This document shows, piece by piece, positions 9,390 through 64,000 of a stretch of 64,000 nt of DNA. The DNA lies in assembly GCF_988243305.1 (NCBI RefSeq), contig NZ_OZ547136.1; one strand, written 5' to 3'. The notes beneath the pieces were generated by a model, which was not told the DNA's origin, ran no database searches, and worked only from the letters and a program-made list of their open reading frames with translations. A program made the position numbers and the translations under genes. How positions within the stretch are numbered: position 1 is the first letter of the stretch; each line of letters opens with the position of its first letter.

Positions 9390-9924
9390 GGCCGCAGGCT
9401 GTTACTCCTGCGGCCGGTTTCGGGCGCATATTGCCATCACGGCAGCCTGACGCCCGTTTTCACCTTACTTCCGGTTACGCCACCAGCTGACAATCGCTGC
9501 GGTAATAATTCCCGCCAGGATCGGTGCTGCCAGGTCGTGCCAGAAAGTCATGGCAAACTGCGCGAGCGTCATATAGCCGCCTTGTTGTAATGACAACATT
9601 TTGCGGCTATTCTTGAATTGTTCTGGTTCAAGATTAGCCCCCGTTCTGTTGTCAGGTTATACCTCTCAACGTGCGGGGGTTTTCTCTTTCCAGCAACCAA
9701 TGCCACCAGGGATAGAGCCCCCGCAACATTGCGCCTCACCGGATAACGCCGGCTTGGTGTGGATACTACGACTCAATTAATCTTCACTTCATCCCTGAAA
9801 TGTATGCAATGAAGAGTGCATTCCGGTTTTTCAACAGCTGTTACAGTCGTTTCATGAGTGCTCTGGATGATGCTTCCAGCTCGGGTTGCCAATATTTACT
9901 TGTGGAAGAGATAAAGACAAAAAA
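9390..9924. repeat. long direct repeat (LDR) unit 1, about 535 bp, carrying an ldr toxin gene and expected Rdl antisense sRNA region
   Basis: 9390-9924 is repeated almost identically at 9925 to about 10400; corresponds to the LDR elements between kdsA and chaA in E. coli. Confidence 0.85.
9465..9572 (-). CDS. ldr: type I toxin-antitoxin small toxic peptide Ldr (35 aa)
   Basis: Minus-strand ORF MTLAQFAMTFWHDLAAPILAGIITAAIVSWWRNRK; below the 60-aa track cutoff; matches the Ldr toxin family. Confidence 0.8.
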   Translation of the reverse strand: MTLAQFAMTFWHDLAAPILAGIITAAIVSWWRNRK

Positions 9925-10400
9925 GGCCGCAGGCTGTTACCCCTGCGGCCGGTTTCGGGCGCATATTGCCATCACGGCAGCCTGACGCCCGTTTTCACCT
10001 TACTTCCGGTTACGCCACCAGCTGACAATCGCTGCGGTAATAATTCCCGCCAGGATCGGTGCTGCCAGGTCGTGCCAGAAAATCATGGCAAACTGCGCGA
10101 GCGTCATATAGCCGCCTTGTTGTAATGACAACATTTTGCGGCTATTCTTGAATTGTTGATGGTTCAAGATTAGCCCCCGTTCTGTTGTCAGGTTTTACCT
10201 CTCAACGTGCGGGGGTTTTCTCTTTCCAGCAACCAATGCCACCAGGGATAAAGCCCCCGCAACATTGCGCCTCACCGGATAACGCCGGCTTGGTGTGGAT
10301 ACTACGTCTCAATTCATCTTCACTTCATCCCTGAAATGTTTGCAATAAAGAGTACATTCCGGCTTTTCAACAGCTGTTGCAGTGGTTTCGTGCAGGTTCT
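9925..10400. repeat. long direct repeat (LDR) unit 2
   Basis: Second tandem copy; homology to unit 1 decays near 10400 before chaA. Confidence 0.8.
10000..10107 (-). CDS. ldr: type I toxin-antitoxin small toxic peptide Ldr (35 aa), second copy
   Basis: Minus-strand ORF MTLAQFAMIFWHDLAAPILAGIITAAIVSWWRNRK; one substitution (I vs T at residue 9) relative to copy 1. Confidence 0.8.
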   Translation of the reverse strand: MTLAQFAMIFWHDLAAPILAGIITAAIVSWWRNRK

Positions 10401-26350: not shown

Positions 26351-27063
26351 TGATGGTGGTGGGGGAAGGATTACTCAGCGCTGCGCGCTTCACCCTTCGG
26401 GTCGTTGCCTGCGGCAACGCTTTCTCGCTGGCGCTCGAGTCGCACCTTGGTCGAAGCTTCTCATCCTTCCCCGCATGGGCAGAATATTTAATTGCGGATT
26501 CGTTTGAGAGTTCACGGACTTTTGAAAAGTGATGGTGGTGGGAGAAGGATTACTCAGCGCTGCGCGCTTCGCCCTTCGGGTCGTTGCCTGCGGCAACGCT
26601 CTCTCGCTGGCGCTCAAGTCGAACCTTGGTTGAAGCTTCTCATCCTTCCCCGCATGGGCAGAATATTTGATTGCGGATTCGTTTGAGAATTCCGGGGCTT
26701 TTGAAAGTTATGGTGGTGGGGGAAGGATTACTCAGCGCTGCGCGCTTCGCCCTTCGGGTCGTTGCCTGCGGCCACGCTCTCTCGCTGGCGCTCGAGTCGA
26801 ACCTTGGTCGAAGCTTCTCATCCTTCCCCGCATGGGCAGAATATTTAATCGCGGATTCGTTTGAGAGTTCACGGACTTTTGAAAGTGATGGTGGTAGGGG
26901 AAGGATTACTCAGCGCTGCGCGCTTCGCCCTTCGGGTCGTTGCCTGCGGCAACGCTCTCTCGCTGGCGCTCGAGTCGAACCTTGGTCGAAGCTTCTCATC
27001 CTTCCCCGCTTGGGCAGAATATTTAATTACGGATTCGTTTGAGAGTTCAGGGACTTTTGAAAG
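26351..27063 (-). repeat. rttR: about 178-bp tandem repeat array downstream of the tyrT-tyrV tRNA genes (rtT RNA / tpr region)
   Basis: Four tandem copies beginning near 26351, 26529, 26709 and 26886, each opening with TGGTGGTGGGGGAAGGATT that mimics the tRNA-Tyr 3' end; known architecture of the tyrT operon. Confidence 0.85.
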
Positions 27064-27066
27064 TGA

Positions 27067-27151
<85 letters not shown>

Positions 27152-27185
27152 AGGGGTAATTCAAATTTTGAGGTAATGCTTGAGA

Positions 27186-27270
<85 letters not shown>

Positions 27271-51470: not shown

Positions 51471-52109
51471 ATGAAAAAGTTAACAGTGGCGGCTTTGGCA
51501 GTAACAACTCTTCTCTCTGGCAGTGCCTTTGCGCATGAAGCAGGCGAATTTTTTATGCGTGCAGGTTCTGCAACCGTACGTCCAACAGAAGGTGCTGGTG
51601 GTACGTTAGGAAGTCTGGGTGGATTCAGCGTGACCAATAACACGCAACTGGGCCTGACGTTTACTTATATGGCAACCGATAACATTGGTGTGGAATTGCT
51701 GGCAGCGACGCCGTTCCGCCATAAAATCGGCACCCGAGCGACCGGCGATATTGCAACCGTTCATCATCTGCCGCCAACACTGATGGCGCAGTGGTATTTT
51801 GGTGATGCCAGCAGCAAATTCCGTCCTTACGTTGGGGCAGGTATTAACTACACCACCTTCTTTGATAATGGATTTAACGATCATGGCAAAGAGGCGGGGC
51901 TTTCCGATCTCAGTCTGAAAGACTCCTGGGGAGCTGCCGGGCAGGTGGGGGTTGATTATCTGATTAACCGTGACTGGTTGGTTAACATGTCAGTGTGGTA
52001 CATGGATATCGATACCACGGCTAAGTACAAATCTGGTGTTACTACCGTAAAAGACTCGGTACGACTGGATCCGTGGGTGTTTATGTTCTCCGCAGGATAT
52101 CGTTTTTAA
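51471..52109 (+). CDS. ompW: outer membrane protein W
   Basis: 212-aa ORF with signal peptide MKKLTVAALAVTTLLSGSAFA and C-terminal aromatic residue (YRF) typical of beta-barrel OMPs. Confidence 0.96.
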   Translation: MKKLTVAALAVTTLLSGSAFAHEAGEFFMRAGSATVRPTEGAGGTLGSLGGFSVTNNTQLGLTFTYMATDNIGVELLAATPFRHKIGTRATGDIATVHHLPPTLMAQWYFGDASSKFRPYVGAGINYTTFFDNGFNDHGKEAGLSDLSLKDSWGAAGQVGVDYLINRDWLVNMSVWYMDIDTTAKYKSGVTTVKDSVRLDPWVFMFSAGYRF

Positions 52110-52154
52110 TTTTCTCTGCAAAACCTCTGCAAAACCCCTCTGCAAAACTGGTCA

Positions 52155-53285
52155 TCAAATGACCAGTTTTTTCCATTCCTTACCGCGTGCGTCGTTGTAA
52201 ATATCGGTCATTTTTTGATTCGAATGGCCTAGCAAAATTTTGGTATCAACCCCCTGCTCTCTGAACAATCGCTCTGATAAAGATCTCTGCTCATGGAAAG
52301 AGGGAGGGGTGCCATTAGCACGCCAGTTGTAATCCACAGAATCCCGGGCTTTTTTAAATGCAACGGTTAATGTTGCTGGCTTAACCATCCCGCCGCGCTT
52401 AGCTGTCCCTTTCGCGTGATGGTGGTGCAATAGCCACGGACTAAGAACGCAATCGCGGCAGGATGACACCACATCATCCAGGGTGAGATTTAATTTATCG
52501 CAACGCAGAGCCAGAGGGATGGCAATCCGGGTTCCTGTTTTTTGCTGTTCGACATGAAGATAACCATCCCGGATATCCGAAAATTGCATTTTGCAAATAT
52601 CTGAAAGGCGCTGGCCTGTCATCAGTGCCAGCAGCATACCGCGCTGTAAAAAGTAACCATCCTTTTCCGCTGCGTTATAAATCATCATCCACTCATCAAA
52701 AGTCAGTCGCTGTCTTGATATCCGCACCTGCGGTTTTTTTGCCGATTCTGCAGGGTTAAAGCCTGGCGGGACATCGCCCGTTTGCTGAGCTTCCCGGAAA
52801 ACATCGATCAGTACTTTCCTGAAAATTTGTCCCATTCTGTTATGTCCTCTGGCCTTGTACTCTTCCAGTACTGATACCACATCTTTTACGGTTATGGCAT
52901 CTAACGGTCTGGTGCCAAAACGTTCATCAAATACCCTGAGAGGGGCCGCTTTCTGTTTCAGCGTGTTGAGTTTGATCTCGCCGTTTTCATATCTTTCCTG
53001 TTGAATTTTTCTGTAATTATTCAGAAAAATGGTAACGGTTGATGAACCGCCGGTATCACTAATAATTTTCTCCTGCAGACTGAGCATTTGTTCCATTTGC
53101 TGCCGGGCAAGACGGCTGTTCGCTTCTGCTGCAATAGTTTCTGCCAGTTTCTGGTCAATACTGCCGAGACCGTGATTTTTGCCTGTTATGGGATGCCTGT
53201 AACGCCAGTAAACTTTGTTATTTCTTTTGTCAAAATACGGAGATAATCCCGGAACATCGGTTTTATATTTTCGCGGGCGCGCCAT
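52155..53285 (-). CDS. int: phage tyrosine integrase (lambda Int family)
   Basis: 376-aa ORF; C-terminal catalytic region with LGHSNQKMTDIYNDARG (Tyr nucleophile context); 3' end overlaps the hairpin adjacent to ompW. Confidence 0.9.
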   Translation of the reverse strand: MARPRKYKTDVPGLSPYFDKRNNKVYWRYRHPITGKNHGLGSIDQKLAETIAAEANSRLARQQMEQMLSLQEKIISDTGGSSTVTIFLNNYRKIQQERYENGEIKLNTLKQKAAPLRVFDERFGTRPLDAITVKDVVSVLEEYKARGHNRMGQIFRKVLIDVFREAQQTGDVPPGFNPAESAKKPQVRISRQRLTFDEWMMIYNAAEKDGYFLQRGMLLALMTGQRLSDICKMQFSDIRDGYLHVEQQKTGTRIAIPLALRCDKLNLTLDDVVSSCRDCVLSPWLLHHHHAKGTAKRGGMVKPATLTVAFKKARDSVDYNWRANGTPPSFHEQRSLSERLFREQGVDTKILLGHSNQKMTDIYNDARGKEWKKLVI

Positions 53286-53511
53286 CTTCCAGTATCCTCT
53301 TCAAAGCAGGGTGATCTGTGGCGATCACCTCCGGCTTGTTTACCATTCCGACAAAGCGAGCTTGCGGATCCACTCGCCAGCGTCTTCCAACTTTTTTGGG
53401 GAGAGGAAATATCATTCCGGCTTTAGCGTATTTACTTAACGTACTCGGAGTAGGGACCGGTTCACTGAATTCCTCTTTTGCCCACTCAGTGAGCAGAATA
53501 AGTCTTGCCAT
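53263..53511 (-). CDS. xis: excisionase-like DNA-binding protein
   Basis: 82-aa ORF MARLILLTEWAKEEF... with a winged-helix pattern similar to lambda Xis (MYLTLQEWNARQ...); overlaps int start by 23 nt. Confidence 0.7.
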   Translation of the reverse strand: MARLILLTEWAKEEFSEPVPTPSTLSKYAKAGMIFPLPKKVGRRWRVDPQARFVGMVNKPEVIATDHPALKRILEDGAPAKI

Positions 53512-53575
53512 GAGCGTCGTTCGCTAATCATGGTCGCCGCCACTATAGCTGGTGGGCAACGACCGGGGTTGAACA

Positions 53576-56050
53576 TTAAAAATCAGCCTGATTCGGGATC
53601 AGTTTTTGCCAGATAGTTGAAACGTATTTTGCCTGGTAACGGGCATCATCCAGCGCATTGTGGCGCTCACCTTCGAATGGAATAGCCGCCCTGGCATCGA
53701 AGTCCATGGCTTTTCCCAGCTCAACGATTGTGCGTACATCGCGATCGTTGTAGTAACGCCACGGGCAGGGGATCCCCTGCCGTTCGTATGAACGGCGCAA
53801 AATCGTGTTGTCGAAGTTGGCTCCATTTCCCCAGACCTGAACAAAAAATTCGCCGGAGTTTTCGTCGATAAATTCCCGCAATTGCAGCAGTGCATCATCT
53901 AACGGGATTTCATCGGTCAGAATGGCAGATTGCGCCTCCCGTGATTGCTTAAGCCACCATTTAATGGTGCCACGATCAATGACTCCGCCAGCAGTATCCA
54001 TATCGATGGTCTTACTAAATTCCGGCCCCATATCTCCGGTTTGCGGATCGAAAAATATTGCACCTATTGAGATAAGCGGGGCATCGGGATTTTTTCCCAT
54101 GGTTTCAAGGTCGATCATCATGTGGTGCCACATTCTGCTGGTGGATGTGATTTCTTGATGACCGTTCACCTTAATTGAGTGATCTGCCGTCTCGCCAGTT
54201 TCATTATCGCTATCGTGATGCTGATTGCCGCCAGTGTTCTCCTTGTGTGGATGTTCAGCGCCTTCCATTTCCTCTGGATCATCTTCCTGAACTTCAGGCT
54301 GATACTCTTCATCGAATGTTTCCTGGTATGTTGCGTCGCCCATTACCGCGCCACAATCAGGGCAGTTGCCGCCGCCGGTCTGACCGCAGGCGGTGCAGAC
54401 TTTTTCCACTTCCTGTTGCGCCACTGATTCAGGCTGTTTCGTTTCTGGCTCGTTTTGTAACGCATTTGGGCTGTTTTGTTCCGCTTTCTGGTCGTTCTGT
54501 TCCGTTTCTTGCTGGTTCTGGTTCACAGAATCGCGGGTCTGGTTCCCCTTAACCCATTTCGGATCATTCGGGTCGCTAATCCCTTCAACAAATTCACCAC
54601 GTGATACTGCAAGCAGTTCATCGGCGTCAGGCTGGCTGATATTGGCTGCCTGCATAATTTTGTTTACTTCGTCAGCGGTAACTTTTACTGGCTCTGGTTG
54701 TGCGGTCGTGTCAGATGCACCAGTATTTTGTTGTGAACCTGAGTATGTACCGTTTTTACGTGCGAAGTATTCCTCTTTTGTGATTTCCGTAGCTCCCAGG
54801 GCCAGTGCTTTTTCCAGACCAGAAAGTTTGTTTGCGCGACCGTATTTTTCGCCGTCCTTATCGGTGAAAAGGAAGTAGAACGGTCCCTCACGCTCTACAG
54901 ATGGTTCGTCTTCCACTTCGCATTCGGTTTTTTCGTTGTCCGGCATTGCCGTTTCCACTGCATCAGTTTCTGGTACTGGTGACGGGAGAGTACCAGCTGT
55001 GCCCTGATTTGTTCCTTCGTCATCTTCAAACACGCCCTTGGTAGTCAGGTATTCAGTGATGTATTTGTTCAGTGCTACGGGATCTTTGTGAATGTCGATC
55101 GGACGCTCACGGACAAGGCCAAAAATAGTCTGACGGTCGTAGCGAACGGCATCGGGTTGTTTGCGCATTGATGCGGAAATGCGCTTCCAGTCTTCGCGAT
55201 CTTTGTCGATAACTTCATTTTTTGCCCAGCGATGGATGCTGCCGTCAATGTTTCCGGTATCAATATCGCCAGGCCAGAGAGCGTAGGCCAGTTCTTCATC
55301 CAGCGTTTTCCATGTCTGCTTGTATTCGCGACAAATGGCGGCAGTGACTGGGTTGATTTTTCCTGCTGAGTTTTCAGTGTTCTGTTGATTGACTCTGGCG
55401 CGGGCGAGATCAACAACAGACGTGTATTTTCCGGTTTCCTTGCGTTCACCTTCGCGACGTTTTTTCCAGATGCGCATCTCTGCCTGAATTTCGGGCCATT
55501 TGGCACCAGGCTTACATTTATGCTTAACCCACCCGATGGCATGCAGCTTAAGCTCCGGATACATGGCGTTAACTTCTGGCATTTTCATCAACGCTTCAAC
55601 GATATGTCCGTCGAATGTTGCCATGTCTTCCTGCAACAATTCCTGTGCGCTAATAACCATATCAACGGTGATGTTTTCACATGTGTCGAACTTAACCATG
55701 ACAGCGTTCTGTACTTCAGGGGCCAGCTTGTCAAAAGTGACGTTCATCGGATCGGATTCAGTCTCAACCGGGACAAAGGAAGCAGACTCCTCATCCCAGC
55801 GGTTTTCCTGCATATATTCAGCATCCCAGGAATCGAGGGCAGGGCGGGGTATACCGGGTTTATCCTCGCAGACAAGAAATTTATAAGCGCAGTCCTGAGC
55901 AGCCGGATAATGCTCCAGGAATTGCCAGTGAAATTTTGCGCGGGCGCGACGTTCATCACCGGCTTCAATGGCAGTGGCTACAGCGACGGCACCTTCTTCC
56001 TTTATTGCCTGTTCGTCCGGAATGGCGGCGCAAATAAAGACTTTACTCAT
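53576..56050 (-). CDS. large prophage exonuclease: RecE/exonuclease VIII-like positional homolog with C-terminal DnaQ-like (DEDDh) 3'-5' exonuclease motifs and an internal CxxC-x8-CxxC zinc ribbon
   Basis: 824-aa ORF; C-terminal motifs MIDLETMG (Exo I), WGNGANFD (Exo II), HNALDDARYQA (Exo III); Cys pair CTACGQTGGGNCPDCG; acidic low-complexity linker; positioned between dicB and xis like lambdoid exo genes. Confidence 0.7.
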   Translation of the reverse strand: MSKVFICAAIPDEQAIKEEGAVAVATAIEAGDERRARAKFHWQFLEHYPAAQDCAYKFLVCEDKPGIPRPALDSWDAEYMQENRWDEESASFVPVETESDPMNVTFDKLAPEVQNAVMVKFDTCENITVDMVISAQELLQEDMATFDGHIVEALMKMPEVNAMYPELKLHAIGWVKHKCKPGAKWPEIQAEMRIWKKRREGERKETGKYTSVVDLARARVNQQNTENSAGKINPVTAAICREYKQTWKTLDEELAYALWPGDIDTGNIDGSIHRWAKNEVIDKDREDWKRISASMRKQPDAVRYDRQTIFGLVRERPIDIHKDPVALNKYITEYLTTKGVFEDDEGTNQGTAGTLPSPVPETDAVETAMPDNEKTECEVEDEPSVEREGPFYFLFTDKDGEKYGRANKLSGLEKALALGATEITKEEYFARKNGTYSGSQQNTGASDTTAQPEPVKVTADEVNKIMQAANISQPDADELLAVSRGEFVEGISDPNDPKWVKGNQTRDSVNQNQQETEQNDQKAEQNSPNALQNEPETKQPESVAQQEVEKVCTACGQTGGGNCPDCGAVMGDATYQETFDEEYQPEVQEDDPEEMEGAEHPHKENTGGNQHHDSDNETGETADHSIKVNGHQEITSTSRMWHHMMIDLETMGKNPDAPLISIGAIFFDPQTGDMGPEFSKTIDMDTAGGVIDRGTIKWWLKQSREAQSAILTDEIPLDDALLQLREFIDENSGEFFVQVWGNGANFDNTILRRSYERQGIPCPWRYYNDRDVRTIVELGKAMDFDARAAIPFEGERHNALDDARYQAKYVSTIWQKLIPNQADF

Positions 56051-56222
56051 TTTGTTTTACCTCATTACAGATTTAAGGGTGAACAAATCCCTGCCATTGC
56101 TGGCATATAAGAATGAAACCGGATATTTATTACGGAACTGTTTTAAAGACCTGCCGGGATTTCGATATCAACTGGCTCTCCGGAAACAAGAAAAACTGTC
56201 AGAACAAGTGCAAATGCTGTAT

Positions 56223-56411
56223 TCATTGCCAGCATCCTTTTTGTATCGGACGTAAACGGGCCAGCATTGAAAGAATGCATATTTTATTTAATAGCTCCCG
56301 TTCGTGTTTTCTCTTGTTAATGGCATCTTCAGTAAATACAGGGTTACTGATAGTGACACCAATTTCAAAACAACCTTCAGACGTATTAACGTTTGGTAAT
56401 AACGTTTCCAT
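56223..56411 (-). CDS. dicB: cell division inhibitor DicB
   Basis: 62-aa ORF METLLPNVNTSEGCFEIGVTISNPVFTEDAINKRK... from ATG 56411 (GAGG SD upstream) inside track ORF 56223-56516; lies about 170 nt downstream of DicF as in the dicB operon. Confidence 0.75.
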   Translation of the reverse strand: METLLPNVNTSEGCFEIGVTISNPVFTEDAINKRKHERELLNKICILSMLARLRPIQKGCWQ

Positions 56412-56585
56412 TATCGCGTCCTCAACAATGAATTTTGTGATGCGGTGCCTGGTGCCTCCAGGTGACGTTAACCAGTTAACAATTAACGCCGGATACAGAG
56501 AATCCACCCATAACACTGTTTTTGGTTTTAACTGTTCCGCGTGCGCTCAGCCGCATTCACCACATCACAAAATTCACTTTAAAAA

Positions 56586-56638
56586 GGGCGGCAGAGCAGT
56601 CACGGAGTAAAACTGATACCGCCAAACGTCACCAGAAA
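56586..56638 (-). ncRNA. dicF: DicF small regulatory RNA (ftsZ-targeting)
   Basis: Reverse complement reads TTTCTGGTGACGTTTGGCGGTATCAGTTTTACTCCGTGACTGCTCTGCCGCCC followed by a T-run; matches the 53-nt DicF sequence as recalled, with its 3' terminator hairpin. Confidence 0.75.
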
Positions 56639-56977
56639 ATTGATAACAGAGGGCGTTGCAGCGGGGTTGTCACTTAAGCGTATGGTCAACCTGACAACCC
56701 GGTGTCCTCAACGGGGGAAGGAATAACCCCGCCATACTTACCGCCGCGCCATTTCGCGGATTGCCACAACCGGAAGCGCACGGTCGACGAAAATTTAACG
56801 ACAGGCTATCTATGAACCAGCTACCTCGCCGTGCGCTTTCGCGTTATGGTCTGACTTTTCAGGGAAATATCCTTTCAGTAAACTGTCAGTGCCGGATTCT
56901 TATCCGTGTCCGGCGCACGACCACACGCTGTCACGAGAGGTCTCCATTCTCAACCAGTAACCTCAATGGAGGATAAA

Positions 56978-57172
56978 ATGTCAGAGCAGGAGTTAAAACT
57001 TGGTGCATGTTATTGTGTTCTCAAGGAGCTGGTACACATGCTTCCATCTACTCAGTATCAACAGTTAGTTGGCAATTTAAATCAGCGAATCGAAGCTATG
57101 TTAAAATCTGATGGTTTTAATAACGTAGAAACGCTGATGCTAAAAAGATATCTTGATGGATTAATCAGATAA
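56978..57172 (+). CDS. hypothetical small protein (64 aa) encoded convergently within the early-left region
   Basis: ATG at 56978 preceded by a strong SD (TGGAGGATAAAATG); MSEQELKLGACYCVLKELVHMLPSTQYQQLVGNLNQRIEAMLK...; inside track ORF 56906-57172; no competing minus-strand ORF over 25 aa in this interval. Confidence 0.5.
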   Translation: MSEQELKLGACYCVLKELVHMLPSTQYQQLVGNLNQRIEAMLKSDGFNNVETLMLKRYLDGLIR

Positions 57173-57499
57173 CATTTTTTTACGGCGTTCATATTCGTTA
57201 ATATTTATGAAGCCTGTTGCCAGAAGCAGTTCGTTAATTTCATGGTTGTTTGGCTGTTTCTGGCTCTTTGAGCTGGGATCTTCCACTTCTTTTTCTGCAA
57301 ATTGTTTTGCTGTATCCTCTGTGCCATGGATATTTAAAGCTGTATCTGAAAACAGCCCAGTAAACGCATCGCGCACATTACGAGCCATATTATCAGTGTC
57401 TTTTTTTGTTACCGATTCCAATTCAAGTTCGTTCAGACGATGACGAAGTGTGTGTGCTGCAATCTCCTGGATTGAAGGAGGTAAATCTTTAAATTCCAT
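57161..57499 (-). CDS. hypothetical early-left protein (112 aa)
   Basis: Track ORF 57161-57511; start placed at second ATG 57499 (MEFKDLPPSIQEIAAHTL...) which has a GAGG SD; 3' end overlaps the convergent plus-strand ORF by 12 nt. Confidence 0.55.
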   Translation of the reverse strand: MEFKDLPPSIQEIAAHTLRHRLNELELESVTKKDTDNMARNVRDAFTGLFSDTALNIHGTEDTAKQFAEKEVEDPSSKSQKQPNNHEINELLLATGFININEYERRKKMLSD

Positions 57500-57510
57500 C
57501 GTCAACCTCA

Positions 57511-57744
57511 TCAGTCAGTGTTTCTTGCTAACCAGCGATGCGCGCCAGCTGCGGTTTTAAACGTTTTACTTTTGGTATACGTCATCGCGGTGAAGGTGCC
57601 GTCCTGGTTAGGGAACACACCGCATACCAGAGATTCGTTGTTGCCAAGATCGATAGTATCCATGCTGACCTCATTTCCCCTTAACGCCGGGGTAGCGGAA
57701 CAAAAACCTGCTGCATAGTTATTAAAGTTGAACCCTGCCGTCAT
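57511..57744 (-). CDS. hypothetical early-left small protein (possibly YdfB-like); start ambiguous (57744 or internal ATG 57663)
   Basis: Track ORF of 77 aa; both ATG 57744 and ATG 57663 (MDTIDLGNNESLVCGVFPNQDGTF...) have GAGG SD sequences upstream; first gene downstream of the OL-type operator. Confidence 0.55.
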   Translation of the reverse strand: MTAGFNFNNYAAGFCSATPALRGNEVSMDTIDLGNNESLVCGVFPNQDGTFTAMTYTKSKTFKTAAGAHRWLARNTD

Positions 57745-57846
57745 GTTCTTACGCCTCGGGCTGGCTACTTACCCCCTGACCACTGCTTGGTAACTCGAAG
57801 TATTGCCCGGCGTTCTGTGGGGCGGGGTGGGTTGGTATGTTGTTAA

Positions 57847-57860
57847 GGTAACAAGAGTTA
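57847..57860. promoter_or_regulatory. candidate left operator (OL) for the prophage repressor
   Basis: 14-bp palindrome GTAACAAGAGTTAC (GTAAC-N4-GTTAC), same motif as the two sites between the cI-like and cro-like genes. Confidence 0.55.
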
Positions 57861-57903
57861 CCTTTCGAGTCAATACAATGTTGCAAAAGGTACATTCGAG
57901 GGC

Positions 57904-57930
57904 ATAAAAAACCCGCAATGAATGCGGGTT
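57904..57930 (-). terminator. rho-independent terminator after the repressor gene
   Basis: Minus-strand hairpin ACCCGCATTCATTGCGGGT followed by a T-run immediately after the cI-like stop. Confidence 0.7.
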
Positions 57931-57935
57931 CTGAC

Positions 57936-58610
57936 TCAGTCTAAGTATTGATGTATTTGTGAAACTTTACCTTTAATGGTGTAACCACCATTAAGTTCGA
58001 TGGGTTTGTAAAGCGGATTCAGTGACAACAGATAGATGTTTGGTCCGTCAATCGCAACTTTTTTTAGTGTTACGTTTGGCGTTCCTTCCAATTGGATTAA
58101 GATTATTTTTCCCACCAGTTCTCTAATGTTACTTGAGCATGGTGTGATCAGCACGGTAGATCCGTCGGGGATGGTTGGGAGGCCGTTAGAGTTTGTCATC
58201 GCATCTCCCTCAACATGCAATAAAAAAGAGTTTTCAGCGGTTTTTGTCATGACATCAACCCAATTCTTAATACCAGGAATCTCGGTTACTGGACAACTCA
58301 TATCCCAATAACCAGCCTGTTCCCACGTTAAAACGGGCAACCGGGCGATGTTGTCACTAATGTAAGGGTACTGATTCAGACGCAGATCATCGGCTTTATC
58401 GTGACCGTCCTTTCCATAAAGAATCCATTCAGGAGATTTGGAAAGCAATTTTGACAGTAGATACAAATTCTCACCGTCAGGTTTTGAAGAGCCATTTTCC
58501 CATTTTGTTACGGATACACGAGATATGCCGATTGCTTTCGCAACCTGCTGTTGGGTTAATCCAACGTCTTTTCGACGATTCCGAATACGTTCGCTGATAG
58601 TGTTTTTCAT
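57936..58610 (-). CDS. prophage CI-like repressor (XRE HTH N-terminal domain plus S24/LexA-like autopeptidase C-terminal domain)
   Basis: Track ORF 57936-58709; start placed at ATG 58610 (MKNTISERIRNRRKDVGLTQQQVAKAIGISRVSVTKWENG...) by close resemblance to the P22 C2 N-terminus; C-terminal Ser/Lys dyad context (GDAM...KK). Confidence 0.85.
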   Translation of the reverse strand: MKNTISERIRNRRKDVGLTQQQVAKAIGISRVSVTKWENGSSKPDGENLYLLSKLLSKSPEWILYGKDGHDKADDLRLNQYPYISDNIARLPVLTWEQAGYWDMSCPVTEIPGIKNWVDVMTKTAENSFLLHVEGDAMTNSNGLPTIPDGSTVLITPCSSNIRELVGKIILIQLEGTPNVTLKKVAIDGPNIYLLSLNPLYKPIELNGGYTIKGKVSQIHQYLD

Positions 58611-58624
58611 GTAACCAATGTTAC
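58611..58624. promoter_or_regulatory. candidate right operator site (PRM-proximal)
   Basis: Palindrome GTAACCAATGTTAC immediately upstream of the repressor start. Confidence 0.55.
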
Positions 58625-58658
58625 TACCAAGTGATGTTGCTATGGTTGACATTGTTAT

Positions 58659-58672
58659 GTAACTATTGTTAC
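58659..58672. promoter_or_regulatory. candidate right operator site (PR-proximal)
   Basis: Palindrome GTAACTATTGTTAC adjacent to a TTGACA hexamer (58646-58651) upstream of the cro-like gene. Confidence 0.55.
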
Positions 58673-58701
58673 CCTTCTGCTCGAAATAACAGGAGAGTTT
58701 T

Positions 58702-58917
58702 ATGTTCAAAGATGATGTTCTGCGCTATTTCAAAAAAAAGCGACTAGTAGCTGAGGCTCTTGGAATTTCACATGTGGCTGTTGTGCGGTGGAAAGCAGTT
58801 ATTCCCAAACTTCGCGCAATGGAACTGGATGAAATTACTAACGGTGAATTGAAATACAACCCAGAACTTTACAAGAAGCAGGATAGCACCTCAAACGAAG
58901 GAAAGAATGATTCATGA
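58702..58917 (+). CDS. Cro-like/YdaS-family HTH DNA-binding protein
   Basis: 71-aa ORF with SD AGGAGAG; HTH segment LVAEALGISHVAVVRW; divergent from the repressor gene. Confidence 0.7.
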   Translation: MFKDDVLRYFKKKRLVAEALGISHVAVVRWKAVIPKLRAMELDEITNGELKYNPELYKKQDSTSNEGKNDS

Positions 58918-59339
58918 AAATCAAGCATGAACACATCCGCATGGCGATGAATGTCTGGGCGCATCCGGACGGCGAAAAAGTGCCGGCTGCGAAAATTACC
59001 AAAGCGTATTTCGAGCTGGGAATGACGTTCCCGGAACTGTATGACGACAGCCATCCGGAAGCCCTGGCCCGTAATACCCAGAAAATTTTCCGTTGGCTGG
59101 ATAAAGACACCCCTGATGCTGTTGAAAAAATGCAGGCTCTGTTACCGGCGATCGAAAAGGCGATGCCGCCTTTGCTGGTGGCCCGTATGCGCAGCCACAG
59201 TTCTGAATATTACCGTGAGATCGTCGAACGGAGGGATCGGCTGGTGAAGGATGTCGATGATTTTGTTGCGTCAGCGGTTGTTTTGTATGACCAGATGAAT
59301 CGCGGCGGCCCGGCAGGGAATGCTGTGGTGATGCACTAA
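58914..59339 (+). CDS. CII-like/YdaT-family prophage regulator
   Basis: 141-aa ORF overlapping the cro-like stop; size and position match the YdaT family that follows ydaS in Rac-type prophages. Confidence 0.55.
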   Translation: MKIKHEHIRMAMNVWAHPDGEKVPAAKITKAYFELGMTFPELYDDSHPEALARNTQKIFRWLDKDTPDAVEKMQALLPAIEKAMPPLLVARMRSHSSEYYREIVERRDRLVKDVDDFVASAVVLYDQMNRGGPAGNAVVMH

Positions 59340-59361
59340 AAGCACGGTGTTCGGGGGTTTT

Positions 59362-60324
59362 ATGAGCAGCAAGCTTCATGGTCTTGTCTGGGAAGGGTGC
59401 GCCTTCACCGGCATGATCTTATCCAGGGTGGCGGTTATGGCCCGTCTTGCAGACTACAGCAATGACGAGGGCGTGTCATGGCCTGCCATTGAAACTATCC
59501 GGCGTCAGATCGGTGCAAGAAGTGAATCCACAGTGAAATCGGCTATTGCAGAACTGGCGAAAGAGGGCTGGCTGACGAAGGAAGAGCGTAAGGTCGGTGG
59601 GCGTAATGTAAGCAATATCTATCGGCTTAATGTGGAAAAACTCGAAGCAGCTGCGGCGGCGGCGCGTGAGTCATATAAACCGAAAAGAAAAATTAGCCCG
59701 GCAAAAAATGACCCGTTAACAGTTGACCCGTCAAATATTGACCCCTCAACGGTTGACCCGTCAAATTTTGATGGATCAACTGTTGATAAAAAACTGCCGA
59801 TTAGGGGGGCGATGATTGACCCCGATCCGTCAGTATTAAAACCTGATCCGTCAGATAAAAGATCTTCTTGTCCGGACGCTTCGCAACCGGACCCGCAGAC
59901 GGCTGAACAGGATTTTTTAACCCGACACCCTGACGCGGTTGTGTTCAGTGCGAAAAAACGCCAGTGGGGAAGTCAGGAAGATTTGGTGTGCGCACAGTGG
60001 ATCTGGGGACGAATCGTGAGTCTTTACGAGCAGGCGGCCAGCTATGATGGCGAGATCACTAGACCGAAAGAACCCAACTGGACAGCATGGGCCAATGACG
60101 TTCGCACAATGCGGATGCTGGATGGCAGAACTCACAGACAAATTTGTGAAATGTTTGGGCGTCTCCAGCGGGATTCGTTCTGGGTAAAAAACATCATGAG
60201 TCCGGCAAAACTCCGGGAAAAATGGGATGAACTGGTTATCCGCCTGGGGCGTTCGCCTGCGCAGCGTTGCGTGAATCACATTTCTGAACCGGACACTGAA
60301 ATTCCGCCGGGCTTCAGGGGGTAA
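59362..60324 (+). CDS. phage replication initiator (lambda O-like, HTH N-terminal domain) containing internal iteron-like repeats
   Basis: Track ORF from GTG 59347; ATG 59362 has a GGGGG SD; N-terminal winged-helix segment (LSRVAVMARLADYSNDEGVSWPAIETIRRQIG); central DPS-rich linker encoded by repeated TTGACCCGTCAA units. Confidence 0.6.
   Translation: MSSKLHGLVWEGCAFTGMILSRVAVMARLADYSNDEGVSWPAIETIRRQIGARSESTVKSAIAELAKEGWLTKEERKVGGRNVSNIYRLNVEKLEAAAAAARESYKPKRKISPAKNDPLTVDPSNIDPSTVDPSNFDGSTVDKKLPIRGAMIDPDPSVLKPDPSDKRSSCPDASQPDPQTAEQDFLTRHPDAVVFSAKKRQWGSQEDLVCAQWIWGRIVSLYEQAASYDGEITRPKEPNWTAWANDVRTMRMLDGRTHRQICEMFGRLQRDSFWVKNIMSPAKLREKWDELVIRLGRSPAQRCVNHISEPDTEIPPGFRG
59708..59790. repeat. iteron-like direct repeats (candidate phage replication origin) inside the replication gene
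   Basis: About five copies of a 12-15 bp unit (TTGACCCGTCAAAT and variants, each an internal dyad TTGAC/GTCAA) followed by an A-rich stretch GATAAAAAACTG. Confidence 0.6.
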
Positions 60325-60364
60325 GTGTTAATTTCTGGTCATGAGGTAATTTTCAGGAGGACTT

Positions 60365-60640
60365 GTGGCAAAAGTTTTTACACAAGAAGAGCGGGAAAAA
60401 ATTAAAGGGCTGATCGTGGAATTCGTACGCCTTAACGGACGAGGCACGATTCGGCAGTTATCGGATGAAATTGGTGTCAGTCATACGTCTGTCGGTCGTT
60501 TATGCATGGAGCTGGCCGCCAGTGGTGATGTTTACAATTCCGGTTACGGAGTATTCCCGTCTGAGCAGGCGCGCAAGGACTGGCAAAACGCCCGCAAAAA
60601 AACTCTCAAGGGCAAAGCTGAAGAAACCATCTGTGGTTGA
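60365..60640 (+). CDS. hypothetical small protein with predicted winged-helix/HTH segment
   Basis: 91-aa ORF from GTG with SD CAGGAGGAC; HTH-like GTIRQLSDEIGVSHTSVGRLCMELAASG. Confidence 0.5.
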   Translation: MAKVFTQEEREKIKGLIVEFVRLNGRGTIRQLSDEIGVSHTSVGRLCMELAASGDVYNSGYGVFPSEQARKDWQNARKKTLKGKAEETICG

Positions 60641-60788
60641 TCCGGACCTTATCTGGCTATTACCTGACGGAGAAATACGTCGCTACGACAGGCGTCAGAA
60701 CATAATCTGTCGCGAGTGCCGGAAGAGCGAAGTTATGCAGCGCGTACTGGCGTTTTATCAGGGGAATTTTCAGGAGGTAGCGCAGTGA
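60633..60788 (+). CDS. hypothetical micro-protein (51 aa), translationally coupled
   Basis: GTG at 60633 overlaps the upstream stop (GTGGTTGA); its stop overlaps the next start (GTGA); part of track ORF 60465-60788. Confidence 0.35.
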   Translation: MVDPDLIWLLPDGEIRRYDRRQNIICRECRKSEVMQRVLAFYQGNFQEVAQ

Positions 60789-61273
60789 GTGCACCGGCAA
60801 CCATTCTTGATATGTGCTGTGGCAGCCGTATGTTCTGGTTCGATAAGAATGACGACCGGGCGATATTTAGCGATATCAGAAAAGAAGAGCACACATTGTG
60901 TGATGGACGACGCCTGATTATCAGTCCTGACCTGATAGCAGATTTTCGAGCATTACCATTTGCAGACGCATCGTTTCCGGTTGTTGTATTCGACCCTCCG
61001 CATCTTGAGTGTGTTGGTGATAAAGCCTGGATGGGAAAGAAATATGGACGGTTGAATAAAGATACCTGGCGTGATGATTTGCGGCAGGGATTTAAAGAAG
61101 CTTTTCGTGTGTTGTGGCCACATGGCGTTCTGATTTTTAAATGGAATGAAACGCAAATATCTGTCCGCCAGATATTGGCACTAACCGACGCGAAACCAAT
61201 CATCAGCCAGCGCACCGGTAAGAACGATAAAACACATTGGATTATTTTTGTGAAGGAGGCGACCAGTGGGTAA
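60785..61273 (+). CDS. putative SAM-dependent (DNA) methyltransferase, orphan
   Basis: Track ORF 60716-61273; GTG at 60785 preceded by SD CAGGAGG; motif I-like ILDMCCGSRMF and motif IV-like FDPPHL; no adjacent restriction endonuclease gene. Confidence 0.5.
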   Translation: MSAPATILDMCCGSRMFWFDKNDDRAIFSDIRKEEHTLCDGRRLIISPDLIADFRALPFADASFPVVVFDPPHLECVGDKAWMGKKYGRLNKDTWRDDLRQGFKEAFRVLWPHGVLIFKWNETQISVRQILALTDAKPIISQRTGKNDKTHWIIFVKEATSG

Positions 61274-61520
61274 ATCAAAATGCCAGGTTTATGGCAACAA
61301 GATAGAACCGTGTACGACCCTGGCAAAATCCCTTGAGCATGATGCTGAATACACGATGCGAAAAGGTCTGCTGATATACAAAATCTGGAATGAGAGTTTA
61401 ACTCGCGGTCCTGATTTTGTGATGTTGCGTTCCGGTGAATTTTCTAAATTACCAGTTCGGGTTTCATTTTGTCCGTTCTGTGGTGAAAGTCTGAAAACGT
61501 GGGAGAACAGAAATGAATGA
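61266..61520 (+). CDS. hypothetical zinc-ribbon protein
   Basis: 84-aa ORF with Cys pairs C6/C16 and CPFC near the C-terminus; overlaps neighbours by 8 nt on each side. Confidence 0.45.
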   Translation: MGKSKCQVYGNKIEPCTTLAKSLEHDAEYTMRKGLLIYKIWNESLTRGPDFVMLRSGEFSKLPVRVSFCPFCGESLKTWENRNE

Positions 61521-61824
61521 AATTAAAGAAATACCAGTAGTACGTGATGAATATGGCTACTGGACGCATCCTGAATATGAAAAATTCTGTGACGGTCGGG
61601 AATATATTTCAACGGAAGAGTTTAACGCCTGGATGGAGGAAAATAATCTTCAATACGTCCTCTGCTTCAGAGATGAAGGATGTGCTGACCTTGATGCGTG
61701 TGATGCTGATATTTCTGCATGGGAACCGGAACGACCAGAGGGCAATGGATGGTTTATTGGTTCAATACATGACACCGAAGATGGCCCGGTTTGTGTATGG
61801 CTGAGAAATAAGGCCGAAGCATAA
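61513..61824 (+). CDS. hypothetical acidic phage protein
   Basis: 103-aa ORF, D/E-rich (DEGCADLDACDADISAWEPERPEG). Confidence 0.45.
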   Translation: MNEIKEIPVVRDEYGYWTHPEYEKFCDGREYISTEEFNAWMEENNLQYVLCFRDEGCADLDACDADISAWEPERPEGNGWFIGSIHDTEDGPVCVWLRNKAEA

Positions 61825-61952
61825 AGGCTATAAACCGACTAACAACTAAATACTGAAGATTTAAATCAGAAACGATTTTTATTAAATCCTTAACCGGAGG
61901 GATTCCTGCACCCTCAGAACATCAGGAGGCCGTCCGAAAGGGCGGTAGTGAA

Positions 61953-62135
61953 ATGCGAAAATTCAAAATAATTATTGAAACGGGAATAGCCGGTGGAGAT
62001 TTCGAGGATGAATTCGAAGTGGATGATGATGCAACACCAGATGAAATACAGGATGAAGCTAAAGATATTTTCTTTAACTACTGCAATTACTCATACCACG
62101 AAATAAAAGACGAAGAGGAAGAACAAAATGGCTGA
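61953..62135 (+). CDS. hypothetical very acidic small protein (60 aa)
   Basis: About one third of residues are D/E (FEDEFEVDDDATPDEIQDEAKD...KDEEEEQNG). Confidence 0.45.
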   Translation: MRKFKIIIETGIAGGDFEDEFEVDDDATPDEIQDEAKDIFFNYCNYSYHEIKDEEEEQNG

Positions 62136-62304
62136 TTTTGGTTCAACTAAATATAACGCCAGTTTTGAAGAATGGCATGAACTGTTAATGGATTATGCAG
62201 AGTTACGCGGTGGAAGTGCCGCTGATGCTGAAGCATGGCGTGATGATTATGAAGCAGGGAAAACACCGGTCGAAGCATATTGTGATGAGTGGGGCGATGA
62301 ATGA
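62128..62304 (+). CDS. hypothetical acidic small protein (58 aa)
   Basis: ATG 62128 overlaps upstream stop (ATGGCTGA); MADFGSTKYNASFEEWHELLMDYAELRGGSAADAEAWRDDYEAGKTPVEAYCDEWGDE; below track size cutoff. Confidence 0.4.
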   Translation: MADFGSTKYNASFEEWHELLMDYAELRGGSAADAEAWRDDYEAGKTPVEAYCDEWGDE

Positions 62305-62660
62305 GCGAGATTAATTATCAGGAAGGGCATGAAAAGGTAGGGCAGGCAAAACCAGTGGCATGGCGATATCGCTACGTGAAAAAAGGCGTTACAGACTTTC
62401 AGGGGAAGCAGTGGGTTGGTGACTGGAAATATGTCCCGACAAAAGAGGATTGTAACGACAGACCAAACTATGAAATTCAGGCGTTATTCACGGCCCCGCC
62501 AGCTTCGGTGACATCAGAAGGACTGGTTAAAGCTGTGCGCTTTTATGAACAGGTACGGCGTGAGGATCCGCCAGTTGAAACCGGAGCATGGAAAGACGCT
62601 ATTGACTGGGTACTCAAGGAGGCCTGCCTGGTTGTAAACACGGGCATCAAAGGAGGCTGA
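62301..62660 (+). CDS. hypothetical phage protein
   Basis: 119-aa ORF, start overlaps upstream stop (ATGA). Confidence 0.45.
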   Translation: MSEINYQEGHEKVGQAKPVAWRYRYVKKGVTDFQGKQWVGDWKYVPTKEDCNDRPNYEIQALFTAPPASVTSEGLVKAVRFYEQVRREDPPVETGAWKDAIDWVLKEACLVVNTGIKGG

Positions 62661-62876
62661 ATGGGTATTGCCGCAAGTTATACCATGCATCTCTATTGTG
62701 ATTGCCGCCAGTGTACGGATGGCAAATATCAGTCGCCAGATTTTGGTGAGTATATCGGTACGTCATGGGCTGGCTGTGCAAAAGAGGCACGTAAAGATGG
62801 GTGGCGAATAAGTGCCGACAAAACGCGTGCTTTTGCGCCAAGGCATAAAATTTTGAGGAGCAACAAAGGAGAGTGA
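62661..62876 (+). CDS. hypothetical Cys-rich small protein
   Basis: 71-aa ORF with CDCRQC motif, immediately after the previous stop. Confidence 0.4.
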   Translation: MGIAASYTMHLYCDCRQCTDGKYQSPDFGEYIGTSWAGCAKEARKDGWRISADKTRAFAPRHKILRSNKGE

Positions 62877-62877
62877 T

Positions 62878-63096
62878 GTGCCTACATTATTCAGAAAAGA
62901 ATATCCGCGAAAAAGTAGAGCGACAGAATTTTTGTTTCTCATTCTGTTTATCGTGTTGATGATACCGATATCCCCGTTAATTCTGGTATGGGGAATCGGA
63001 AAAATAATTGAGCCAGTTATTGAATTGTATAACGACGTGGTATGGGCTCCGTTCAACACACTGCACAATAAAATTAATCCGTATAAGGAAAACTGA
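62878..63096 (+). CDS. hypothetical small membrane protein
   Basis: 72-aa ORF with one strongly hydrophobic segment (FLFLILFIVLMIPISPLILVWGIG). Confidence 0.4.
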   Translation: MPTLFRKEYPRKSRATEFLFLILFIVLMIPISPLILVWGIGKIIEPVIELYNDVVWAPFNTLHNKINPYKEN

Positions 63097-63097
63097 T

Positions 63098-63361
63098 ATG
63101 GCAACTTTGACAAAAAAAGAACAGGCATGGTTGAACGAATTACAGGACGTTCTTGATCGCTGTCCATCACCGAAAAAAATTGGTTTTTACACCATTGGCG
63201 ATAAAAGCATTTACCTGTATGACCTGCGCCGCATGGATGAAATCATGGAGGCTCTTGATAATCGTTCGTCAATGGATTGGTGTGTTGCTGTCCATGATAT
63301 GAATGCAGGGTTTGATGAAAAGATTTTGTTCCCCTCATCAGTTGAAAGCACTGCGGGTTAA
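63098..63361 (+). CDS. hypothetical phage protein
   Basis: 87-aa ORF from ATG 63098 (MATLTKKEQAWLNELQDV...) within track ORF 63008-63361. Confidence 0.4.
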   Translation: MATLTKKEQAWLNELQDVLDRCPSPKKIGFYTIGDKSIYLYDLRRMDEIMEALDNRSSMDWCVAVHDMNAGFDEKILFPSSVESTAG

Positions 63362-63371
63362 GGAGTAACAC

Positions 63372-64000
63372 ATGACCACTATTACCAAAGAACGTATTGA
63401 ATTGTTCATTAAAAACCCGCTTGAAAACGGGCTTACCCGTGGTGAACAAATGGAACTGGCACGGATTGCGCTGGCATCGCTGGAAGCAGATCCAGTTAAA
63501 CGAGTTAACTCAGATCAGATGCGCCGAGTCTGCTTAGAAGCTAATCGCCATTTAGATAAATATGACGCGATGGCGAAAGAGGTAAATAAGTTGCTTGGAC
63601 GCATCGCCCCGCCAGCGCCGGTAGTGCCGGAAGAAGCAACTCCGGAAAACGTAGAAATGCTCTCTGGCTATGTTTCCACGTACAAATTAACCGATAGCGA
63701 GCGCGATATTGCTGCCGAAATATGGAACGCCTGCCGCACCGCCATGCTTCAGTCCGGAAACTTTCGGGAAAGCAAGAATTCGTCAACCAATAATTTTCGG
63801 GAAATCCCGGAAGCGTCAACCAGCTCTCCGGTAACTCCGGCTCTTCTGCCTGGTGGTTTCACCATTGAGGAGGCGAAGGAATTACATGAAGACCTGGTAC
63901 GCAGCCACATAAGCAAGGCCTTAAGTGGCGAAAAGATGAAAAAGAAAGATCGCGATGCTGATTTGCGCTGGATTCATGGCGTTATAGTTCAGGCAGCGTG
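63372..64000 (+). CDS. hypothetical phage protein, partial (runs off window end)
   Basis: ATG 63372 with SD AAGGAG; open frame MTTITKERIELFIKNPLENGLTRGEQMELARIALASLEADPV... without stop to 64000. Confidence 0.5.
   Translation, partial: MTTITKERIELFIKNPLENGLTRGEQMELARIALASLEADPVKRVNSDQMRRVCLEANRHLDKYDAMAKEVNKLLGRIAPPAPVVPEEATPENVEMLSGYVSTYKLTDSERDIAAEIWNACRTAMLQSGNFRESKNSSTNNFREIPEASTSSPVTPALLPGGFTIEEAKELHEDLVRSHISKALSGEKMKKKDRDADLRWIHGVIVQAA

Follow-up and report, generated by a model that had tools for sequence, protein, structure and literature searches.

The minus strand of the analyzed window, a 64,000-nucleotide stretch of contig NZ_OZ547136.1 (RefSeq assembly GCF_988243305.1), carries dicF and dicB, and these genes almost certainly make up a dicBF cassette of the standard kind, placed in the PL-type (early-left) operon of an ompW-integrated lambdoid prophage. 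Both DicF and DicB are textbook examples of division inhibitors encoded by prophages. The dicF–dicB module is real and correctly located, the coordinates that an earlier note on this DNA had given for the two genes being exact. It is also a routine, already described prophage module, and its importance beyond correct annotation is small, as the literature already reports DicF and DicB from many prophage settings, with several copies in a single genome.

Identity of dicF and dicB

The two genes that define the module lie on the same strand:
56586-56638, minus strand: dicF, the 53-nt DicF sRNA (Rfam RF00039 and 53/53 identity to K-12)
56223-56411, minus strand: dicB, encoding the 62-aa cell division inhibition protein DicB (NCBIfam NF049927 and phrog_1251)

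From the letters of the sequence, the earlier note had read minus-strand positions 56586-56638 as DicF with its terminator and had proposed pairwise alignment to the K-12 genes as a check. The alignment bears out this reading, as dicF is identical to K-12 dicF (NC_000913, b1574) at 53 of 53 positions, while DicB matches its K-12 counterpart at 55 of 62 residues. A scan of the whole window at Rfam gathering thresholds returned RF00039 at 56586-56637 on the minus strand with 76.7 bits (E 3.6e-15; gathering threshold 48 bits), covering the full model, positions 1-52 of 52. The RNA consists of a single-stranded 5' seed followed by a 3' Rho-independent terminator hairpin (56623-56611 with 56601-56587), which is kept in the consensus fold of 72 homologues, and the sequence TTTTT at 56585-56581 lies directly 3' of this hairpin. 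As in K-12, with which the region is collinear, dicF is embedded in an operon of the dicBF type and has an untranslated leader on one side and dicB on the other. Given its identity to the K-12 RNA, DicF would be expected to be processed by RNases III and E, to bind Hfq and to repress ftsZ translation.

A 62-aa DicB-like ORF had been noted about 170 nt downstream of dicF. This ORF, which runs on the minus strand from the ATG at 56411 to the stop codon at 56223 and is separated from dicF by a 174-nt spacer (56412-56585) equal in length to that of K-12, scores 132.7 bits against the NCBIfam model NF049927, "cell division inhibition protein DicB" (curated cut-off 100 bits), with residues 1-62 of 62 aligned, and also matches phrog_1251 (E 3e-41). 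It is 100% identical to RefSeq WP_000449192.1, which is present in two complete genomes. Four of the seven positions (of 62) that differ from K-12 DicB fall within the last eight residues; this allele is nevertheless the common one in RefSeq. The ydfD ATG overlaps the dicB TGA, as it does in K-12. By analogy with the known function of K-12 DicB, the protein would inhibit FtsZ ring formation in a MinC-dependent manner.

Architecture of the ompW prophage

The genes surrounding the module are as follows:
51471-52109, plus strand: ompW, adjoining the prophage end
52155-53285, minus strand: integrase ORF; the same gene is annotated as phage integrase beside ompW in FORC_069 and EC931
53263-53511, minus strand: excisionase ORF; annotated as excisionase in FORC_069 and EC931
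53576-56050, minus strand: 824-aa exonuclease, the intact counterpart of the ydfE pseudogene (phrog_2082, full length 1-824)
56143-56226, minus strand: ydfD remnant, 27 aa versus 63 aa, from alignment to K-12
56978-57172, plus strand: antisense 64-aa ORF, convergent with the operon and situated between the leader and the 116-aa ORF (phrog_4987)
57161-57511, minus strand: 116-aa ORF
57511-57663, minus strand: YdfA-like DUF1391 protein, 50 aa, with 87.8% amino acid identity to K-12 YdfA

Since the integrase and excisionase genes lie directly beside ompW, the element is a lambdoid prophage integrated at ompW, which is a known integration site used by the PPompW prophages (PMC8112680). Judged by its tyrT/tyrV tRNAs, RtT repeats and rdlD, the window as a whole is E. 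coli chromosome. Four RtT repeats with two tRNA genes (a tyrT/tyrV-type locus) and two rdlD antitoxin RNAs were found at 26354-27270 (minus strand) and 9620-10221 (plus strand); such features are ordinary for an E. coli chromosome, and they locate the window close to ompW. Along the minus strand, the prophage genes follow the order repressor, terminator, YdfA-like gene, 116-aa ORF, leader, dicF, spacer, dicB, ydfD, exonuclease, excisionase and integrase.

The earlier note had described a large exonuclease directly downstream of the dicB region, and this gene proves to be the intact form of the K-12 ydfE, which is truncated by IS2. Translated ydfE, as far as the IS2E insertion, shares 95.3% identity with residues 1-256 of the exonuclease, and at the nucleotide level 56168-55284 matches the ydfE pseudogene with 94.9% identity (blastn) up to the same insertion. 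Because the exonuclease matches ydfE so closely (94.9% of nucleotides, 95% of amino acids), Qin also had an exonuclease downstream of dicB, and the gene described here shows the state of K-12 ydfE before its truncation by IS2.

The short gene between dicB and the exonuclease is ydfD, which encodes the lysis protein in K-12. Compared to K-12, it has an in-frame 108-bp deletion, and phrog_1092 matches residues 1-21 only. The deletion junction was found in 0 of 66 viral loci. When complete E. coli genomes were queried with the junction, the best 10 of 3878 records all kept the extra 108 nt, with ties in the ranking left unsettled, and uniqueness of the deletion is thus not proven.

Upstream of the leader, the YdfA-like gene and the 116-aa ORF form a pair matching phrog_751 and phrog_2151. 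The 64-aa ORF that lies antisense to the operon matches the profile of phrog_4987 over 64 of 64 positions (E 3.1e-49), has a strong Shine-Dalgarno sequence, GGAGGA, 5 nt before its ATG, overlaps the 3' end of the 116-aa ORF with its own 3' end by 12 nt, and is annotated in FORC_069 as the hypothetical protein WP_001295058.1. It is probably a real gene inside the transcription unit, and convergent transcription from it could reduce read-through to dicF.

Comparison with the K-12 prophage Qin

In the K-12 cryptic prophage Qin, the dicBF operon has the order ydfABC-dicF-dicB-ydfD-ydfE and is under the control of DicA and DicC. The earlier note had placed dicF and dicB in a non-Qin prophage context. 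This holds for the attachment site, the integrase and the full-length CI/C2-type repressor, all of which are different here, but Qin has the cassette and the genes around it in collinear order. Indeed, blastn aligned 56919-56165, which runs from the leader through dicF, the spacer and dicB into the 5' part of ydfD, with Qin at 96.8% identity over 755 nt, and 57701-57520 with ydfA at 90% nucleotide identity. The two prophages share an identical DicF, the 174-nt spacer, an untranslated gap of the same size upstream of dicF, ydfA upstream, and ydfD followed by ydfE (exonuclease) downstream, in the same order. In both, the repressor gene is on the strand of the operon and a DicC-like Cro gene diverges from it. 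Judged by these alignments, the non-Qin framing overstates the difference, and to treat the context as foreign to Qin is wrong.

Unlike Qin, the prophage studied here is integrated at ompW with an integrase unrelated to intQ, its exonuclease, excisionase and integrase genes are intact and lack IS2, its ydfD carries the 108-bp in-frame deletion, and the 116-aa ORF and the antisense 64-aa ORF take the place of ydfB and ydfC. No similarity to ydfB, ydfC or intQ was found in the prophage in the comparison against K-12 Qin. Qin is best regarded as a decayed relative of such a prophage.

Leader and spacer RNAs

On either side of dicF lies an untranslated segment of the operon, each with a predicted long helix (that of the leader is listed separately):
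56639-56919, minus strand: conserved untranslated leader, ~280 nt, the precursor part of the DicF transcript (from homology and the lack of an ORF)
56765-56848, minus strand: long leader helix, a predicted RNase III substrate (single-sequence fold and 72-sequence consensus fold)
56412-56585, minus strand: dicF–dicB spacer, 174 nt (fold z-score and consensus fold)

The stretch upstream of dicF, 56639-56977, had been described as lacking any sizeable minus-strand ORF and as a possible processed leader. The first point is confirmed, as the longest minus-strand ORF in this stretch is a 31-aa GTG ORF; the coding potential of the leader amounts to no more than small ORFs (31-71 aa) that begin with GTG or TTG. 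The K-12 gap between ydfC and dicF, at 340 nt, is the same size as 56639-56977, and homology to K-12 has a sharp upstream boundary at 56919. The processed-leader idea is also supported, as the leader is ~97% identical to that of K-12, yet it is published K-12 biology, the processing of the K-12 leader by RNases III and E having been described (PMC10448788, PMC9438474). In K-12, DicF is excised from a polycistronic RNA whose start is at dicBp, upstream of ydfA; RNase III generates a 190-nt species and RNase E the 53-nt species, and primer extension showed no internal promoter (PMC10448788). RNase III processing of the full-length transcript also yields a 72-nt DicF (PMC5069750, PMC9438474). An internal leader promoter, which would make dicF a self-standing gene, was considered and rejected: a consensus promoter scan revealed no minus-strand promoter-like site in 55900-58900, in agreement with the published primer extension.

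The predicted folds of the leader and spacer place a helix at each expected cleavage position. In the leader, arms at 56848-56826 and 56787-56765 enclose a hypervariable apical loop (56825-56788), and the 5' end of a 190-nt DicF species that stops at the DicF terminator is expected at ~56771-56775, within the 3' arm. In the spacer, which has one mismatch to that of K-12, smaller hairpins and a variable segment (56527-56492) lie inside a 20-bp long-range helix (56578-56558 with 56447-56427). The 72-nt DicF species would end at 56567, within the 5' arm of this helix, while the 3' arm stops just 5' of the dicB Shine-Dalgarno sequence. According to the predicted folds, both end positions are those that RNase III cutting of the leader and spacer duplexes would give.

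The association of these elements with DicF was examined in 120 IMG/VR contigs retrieved by the DicF core pattern. All 120 loci had the leader beside DicF, 97 of them at a coverage of 90% or more (identity 85.6-100%), and 115 of the 120 had the spacer. By contrast, dicB was present in 97 of these contigs, with near-full coverage in only 70. Thus, with the leader and spacer near-universal and dicB less so, the leader–DicF–spacer block is the inherited unit. In an alignment of 72 distinct homologues (81-97% identity), the arms of the leader and spacer helices are almost invariant, and the leader loop (56825-56788) and spacer segment (56527-56492) have been swapped for unrelated sequence in several lineages. 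The helices lack covariation support in these 72 sequences, with double changes in 3 of 129 predicted pairs and a covariation term of -0.72 kcal/mol. None of the three pairs is located in the leader helix; one (alignment columns 377/528, in a single sequence) belongs to the long spacer helix, and a short hairpin within the variable segment accounts for the remaining two. The modeled structures are thus based on thermodynamics, the pattern of conservation and agreement with the published cleavage products, and not on covariation. That both helices always accompany DicF fits their published role as RNase III substrates.

A permissive-threshold Rfam search of 55900-58000 gave two additional matches. 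One, at 56379-56588 on the minus strand, covers the spacer and the first dicB codons and aligns with the full 206-position model of STnc100, a Salmonella sRNA family, at 38.7 bits (gathering threshold 47; E 2.3e-6 in a local search). The Salmonella STnc100 "sRNA" may itself be a homologous prophage spacer. The other, to Trp_leader, was rejected, as it is at chance level and the matched sequence is actually the terminator of the repressor gene. Apart from STnc100 and Trp_leader, this search detected no further RNA family in 55900-58000.

These data also bear on whether the 280-nt leader or the 174-nt spacer encodes an extra regulatory RNA, or a cis-element that controls dicB translation, an explanation that we consider unlikely. 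In nearly every one of the 120 viral loci DicF is accompanied by the leader and spacer, also where dicB is missing or has diverged, the fold of the spacer is far better than that of shuffled sequence (z-score -4.31, none of 200 shuffles reaching it), the STnc100 match covers the full model, and the 3' arm of the spacer helix adjoins the dicB ribosome-binding site. However, the STnc100 score is below the gathering threshold, the helices show no covariation, and neither the promoter scan of the minus strand nor K-12 primer extension (PMC10448788) points to a promoter from which a separate RNA would start. Moreover, the known RNase III sites already explain why both helices are conserved. Processing of one long dicBF transcript is the preferred account of the leader and spacer.

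The repressor and its candidate operators

The immunity region upstream of the YdfA-like gene contains the following features:
57845-57873, minus strand: candidate PL-like promoter, TTGACT-17 nt-TACCTT, read from the sequence
57936-58652, minus strand: CI/C2-type repressor, 238 aa, with a DicA/P22 C2-like helix-turn-helix (HTH) and a lambda CI-like C-terminal domain
58611-58624 and 58659-58672: candidate OR operators facing cro, exact copies of the GTAAC-N4-GTTAC palindrome
58702-58917, plus strand: DicC-like cro (DicC model, below cut-off)

The earlier note had dicF and dicB downstream of a P22 C2-type repressor, and the comparison with known repressors agrees, as the HTH is closest to that of P22 C2 (1adr, E 1.5e-12). 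Over residues 18-82, the HTH is 57% identical to DicA. In addition, residues 25-231 align with lambda CI (3bdn_A, E 4.8e-14), with the C-terminal domain matched over its full length. The repressor is thus a 238-aa protein with an HTH and a CI-like C-terminal domain, whereas Qin DicA, at 135 aa, has the HTH only. On the DicA model the repressor scores 79.5 bits, through its HTH only and below the cut-off of 101, and the Cro-like protein, at 56.1 bits, falls short of the DicC model's cut-off of 130. The operator sequences also differ from those of Qin. By these sequence comparisons, the repressor and Cro-like protein are best described as homologous to DicA and DicC but of a different immunity type.

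The assignment of promoter and operators is putative. The candidate PL-like promoter is located upstream of the YdfA-like gene and downstream of the terminator hairpin of the repressor gene (57929-57911, with a T-run after it), and is overlapped by the palindrome GTAACTCTTGTTAC (57848-57861). Its -10 element is weak, matching at 3 of 6 positions, and the consensus promoter scan did not call it. The GTAAC-N4-GTTAC motif occurs in three exact copies in the 64-kb window, all of them in the immunity region; of the two remaining copies, 58611-58624 is at the start of the repressor gene and 58659-58672 in the intergenic region between the repressor gene and cro. Such an arrangement is that expected for OL and OR operators, and it suggests that the CI/C2-type repressor would repress the cassette. 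Because an in-frame ATG (MKNT...) comes directly after the copy at 58611-58624, the repressor may start 14 codons downstream of the annotated start.

The C-terminal domain has the domain layout of the peptidase S24 proteins lambda CI, P22 C2 and LexA and retains two of their hallmarks, the Ala-Gly cleavage site (WEQAGYW versus HVQAGMF in lambda) and the catalytic Lys (TLKKV versus TFKKL). The third is missing: Ala replaces the residue that corresponds to the catalytic Ser149 of lambda CI (VEGDAMT versus VEGNSMT), leaving the Ser-Lys dyad incomplete. In cultured phages, the nearest homologues of the repressor have the Ser; Ala is found again in the E. coli EC931 protein (WP_000103687.1) and, at 90-100% identity, in 16 IMG/VR contigs. 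The corresponding LexA S119A and lambda CI S149A substitutions abolish self-cleavage. Self-cleavage is therefore not expected of a repressor in which this Ser is replaced by Ala and, by analogy, the protein is probably non-self-cleaving and blind to SOS; the operon may then fail to respond to SOS, as under DicA in Qin. A broader proposition is that the dicBF cassettes of ompW prophages are held by an Ala-form repressor, making the cassette, and perhaps the whole prophage, blind to RecA/SOS and responsive only to an anti-repressor or to stochastic Cro-type switching. We put this forward tentatively, as a possibility that we do not favor. If true, the repressor would correspond, in full-length form, to Qin's DicA, which is truncated and non-cleavable, and might be an intermediate toward DicA, and its Ser-to-Ala substitution would offer a testable reason for silence of the cassette under SOS.

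Proposed mechanism

The standard dicBF cassette would then operate as follows. In the lysogen, the CI/C2-type repressor would bind the GTAAC-N4-GTTAC operators and keep the operon silent. Upon firing of the promoter, one transcript would be made that contains the YdfA-like gene, the 116-aa ORF, ~520 untranslated nt and dicF. Part of transcription would stop at the DicF terminator and the rest would continue through the spacer, dicB, the ydfD remnant, the exonuclease, excisionase and integrase genes. RNase III would cut the leader helix to produce the 190-nt precursor and the spacer helix to produce the 72-nt form, and RNase E would trim the RNA to the 53-nt DicF. DicF, together with Hfq, would base-pair with ftsZ mRNA and other mRNAs, DicB would recruit MinC to the division site, and the two in combination would block division. 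For the source strain, we infer transcription, processing and phenotype from K-12, on the strength of near-identity.

That the cassette is instead a decaying remnant, present as a silent passenger but no longer expressed or functional, is very improbable. In favor of this reading, ydfD is shortened by an in-frame loss of 108 bp, neither ydfB nor ydfC is present, the leader is separated from the promoter-proximal genes by an opposite-strand ORF, and SOS induction may not derepress an operon whose repressor lacks the catalytic Ser. Against it, DicF matches at 53 of 53 positions, the leader and spacer are ~97-99% identical to functional K-12 sequences, DicB is an intact, widespread allele, the downstream exonuclease, excisionase and integrase are full length, unlike in Qin, and K-12 Qin, which is far more degraded, makes DicF (PMC10448788).

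Distribution and relatives of the cassette

The spread of the cassette was assessed using a 901-nt query (56100-57000). Matches were present in 4737 of 5426 complete E. coli genomes, with a median of two places per genome and a maximum of ten, and in 61 phage records, among them PPompW prophages, Stx-converting phages, mEp460 and Tritos, whose record annotates DicF explicitly. In 13 complete genomes, 80% or more of the 12-kb arm at 52100-64000 is covered with ~97-98% identity, the repressor, there named "LexA family", included. These findings accord with the literature, in which dicF or dicBF in several prophage contexts and in multiple copies per genome has already been published, as have multiple dicF copies in O157:H7 strains and the resemblance of the dicBF region to the P22 immC locus (PMC5069750, PMC7873438). 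For the dicF copies of EHEC O157:H7, the study of Melson & Kendall 2019 is known to us as cited in PMC7873438. The EHEC O157:H7 prophages carry dicF, along with portions of the dicBF operon, outside Qin, as is the case here; the window holds a single copy.

Close relatives are the lambdoid prophages at ompW (PPompW of STEC strains, and the prophages of EC931, FORC_069 and others), which have the same integrase-excisionase-exonuclease-ydfD-dicB-dicF arm beside ompW. These prophages vary between ydfA and the leader, where EC931 has ydfB, ydfC and two more ORFs, and the immunity region of the FORC_069 prophage differs. In both of the ompW prophages inspected, EC931 and FORC_069, ydfD is full length, in contrast to the remnant described here.

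In the RefSeq annotation of the FORC_069 and EC931 ompW prophages, dicB and ydfD are listed and the dicF ncRNA is absent, though its sequence is present. As the annotations of these sister prophages omit dicF, its annotation in the present prophage is warranted.

Lastly, the 254-kb record of Aeromonas phage AP1 (MT713136.1) includes, at 249906-250152, a 247-nt copy of the E. coli DicF region with 98% identity, which looks like contamination or a chimeric assembly and not real biology.
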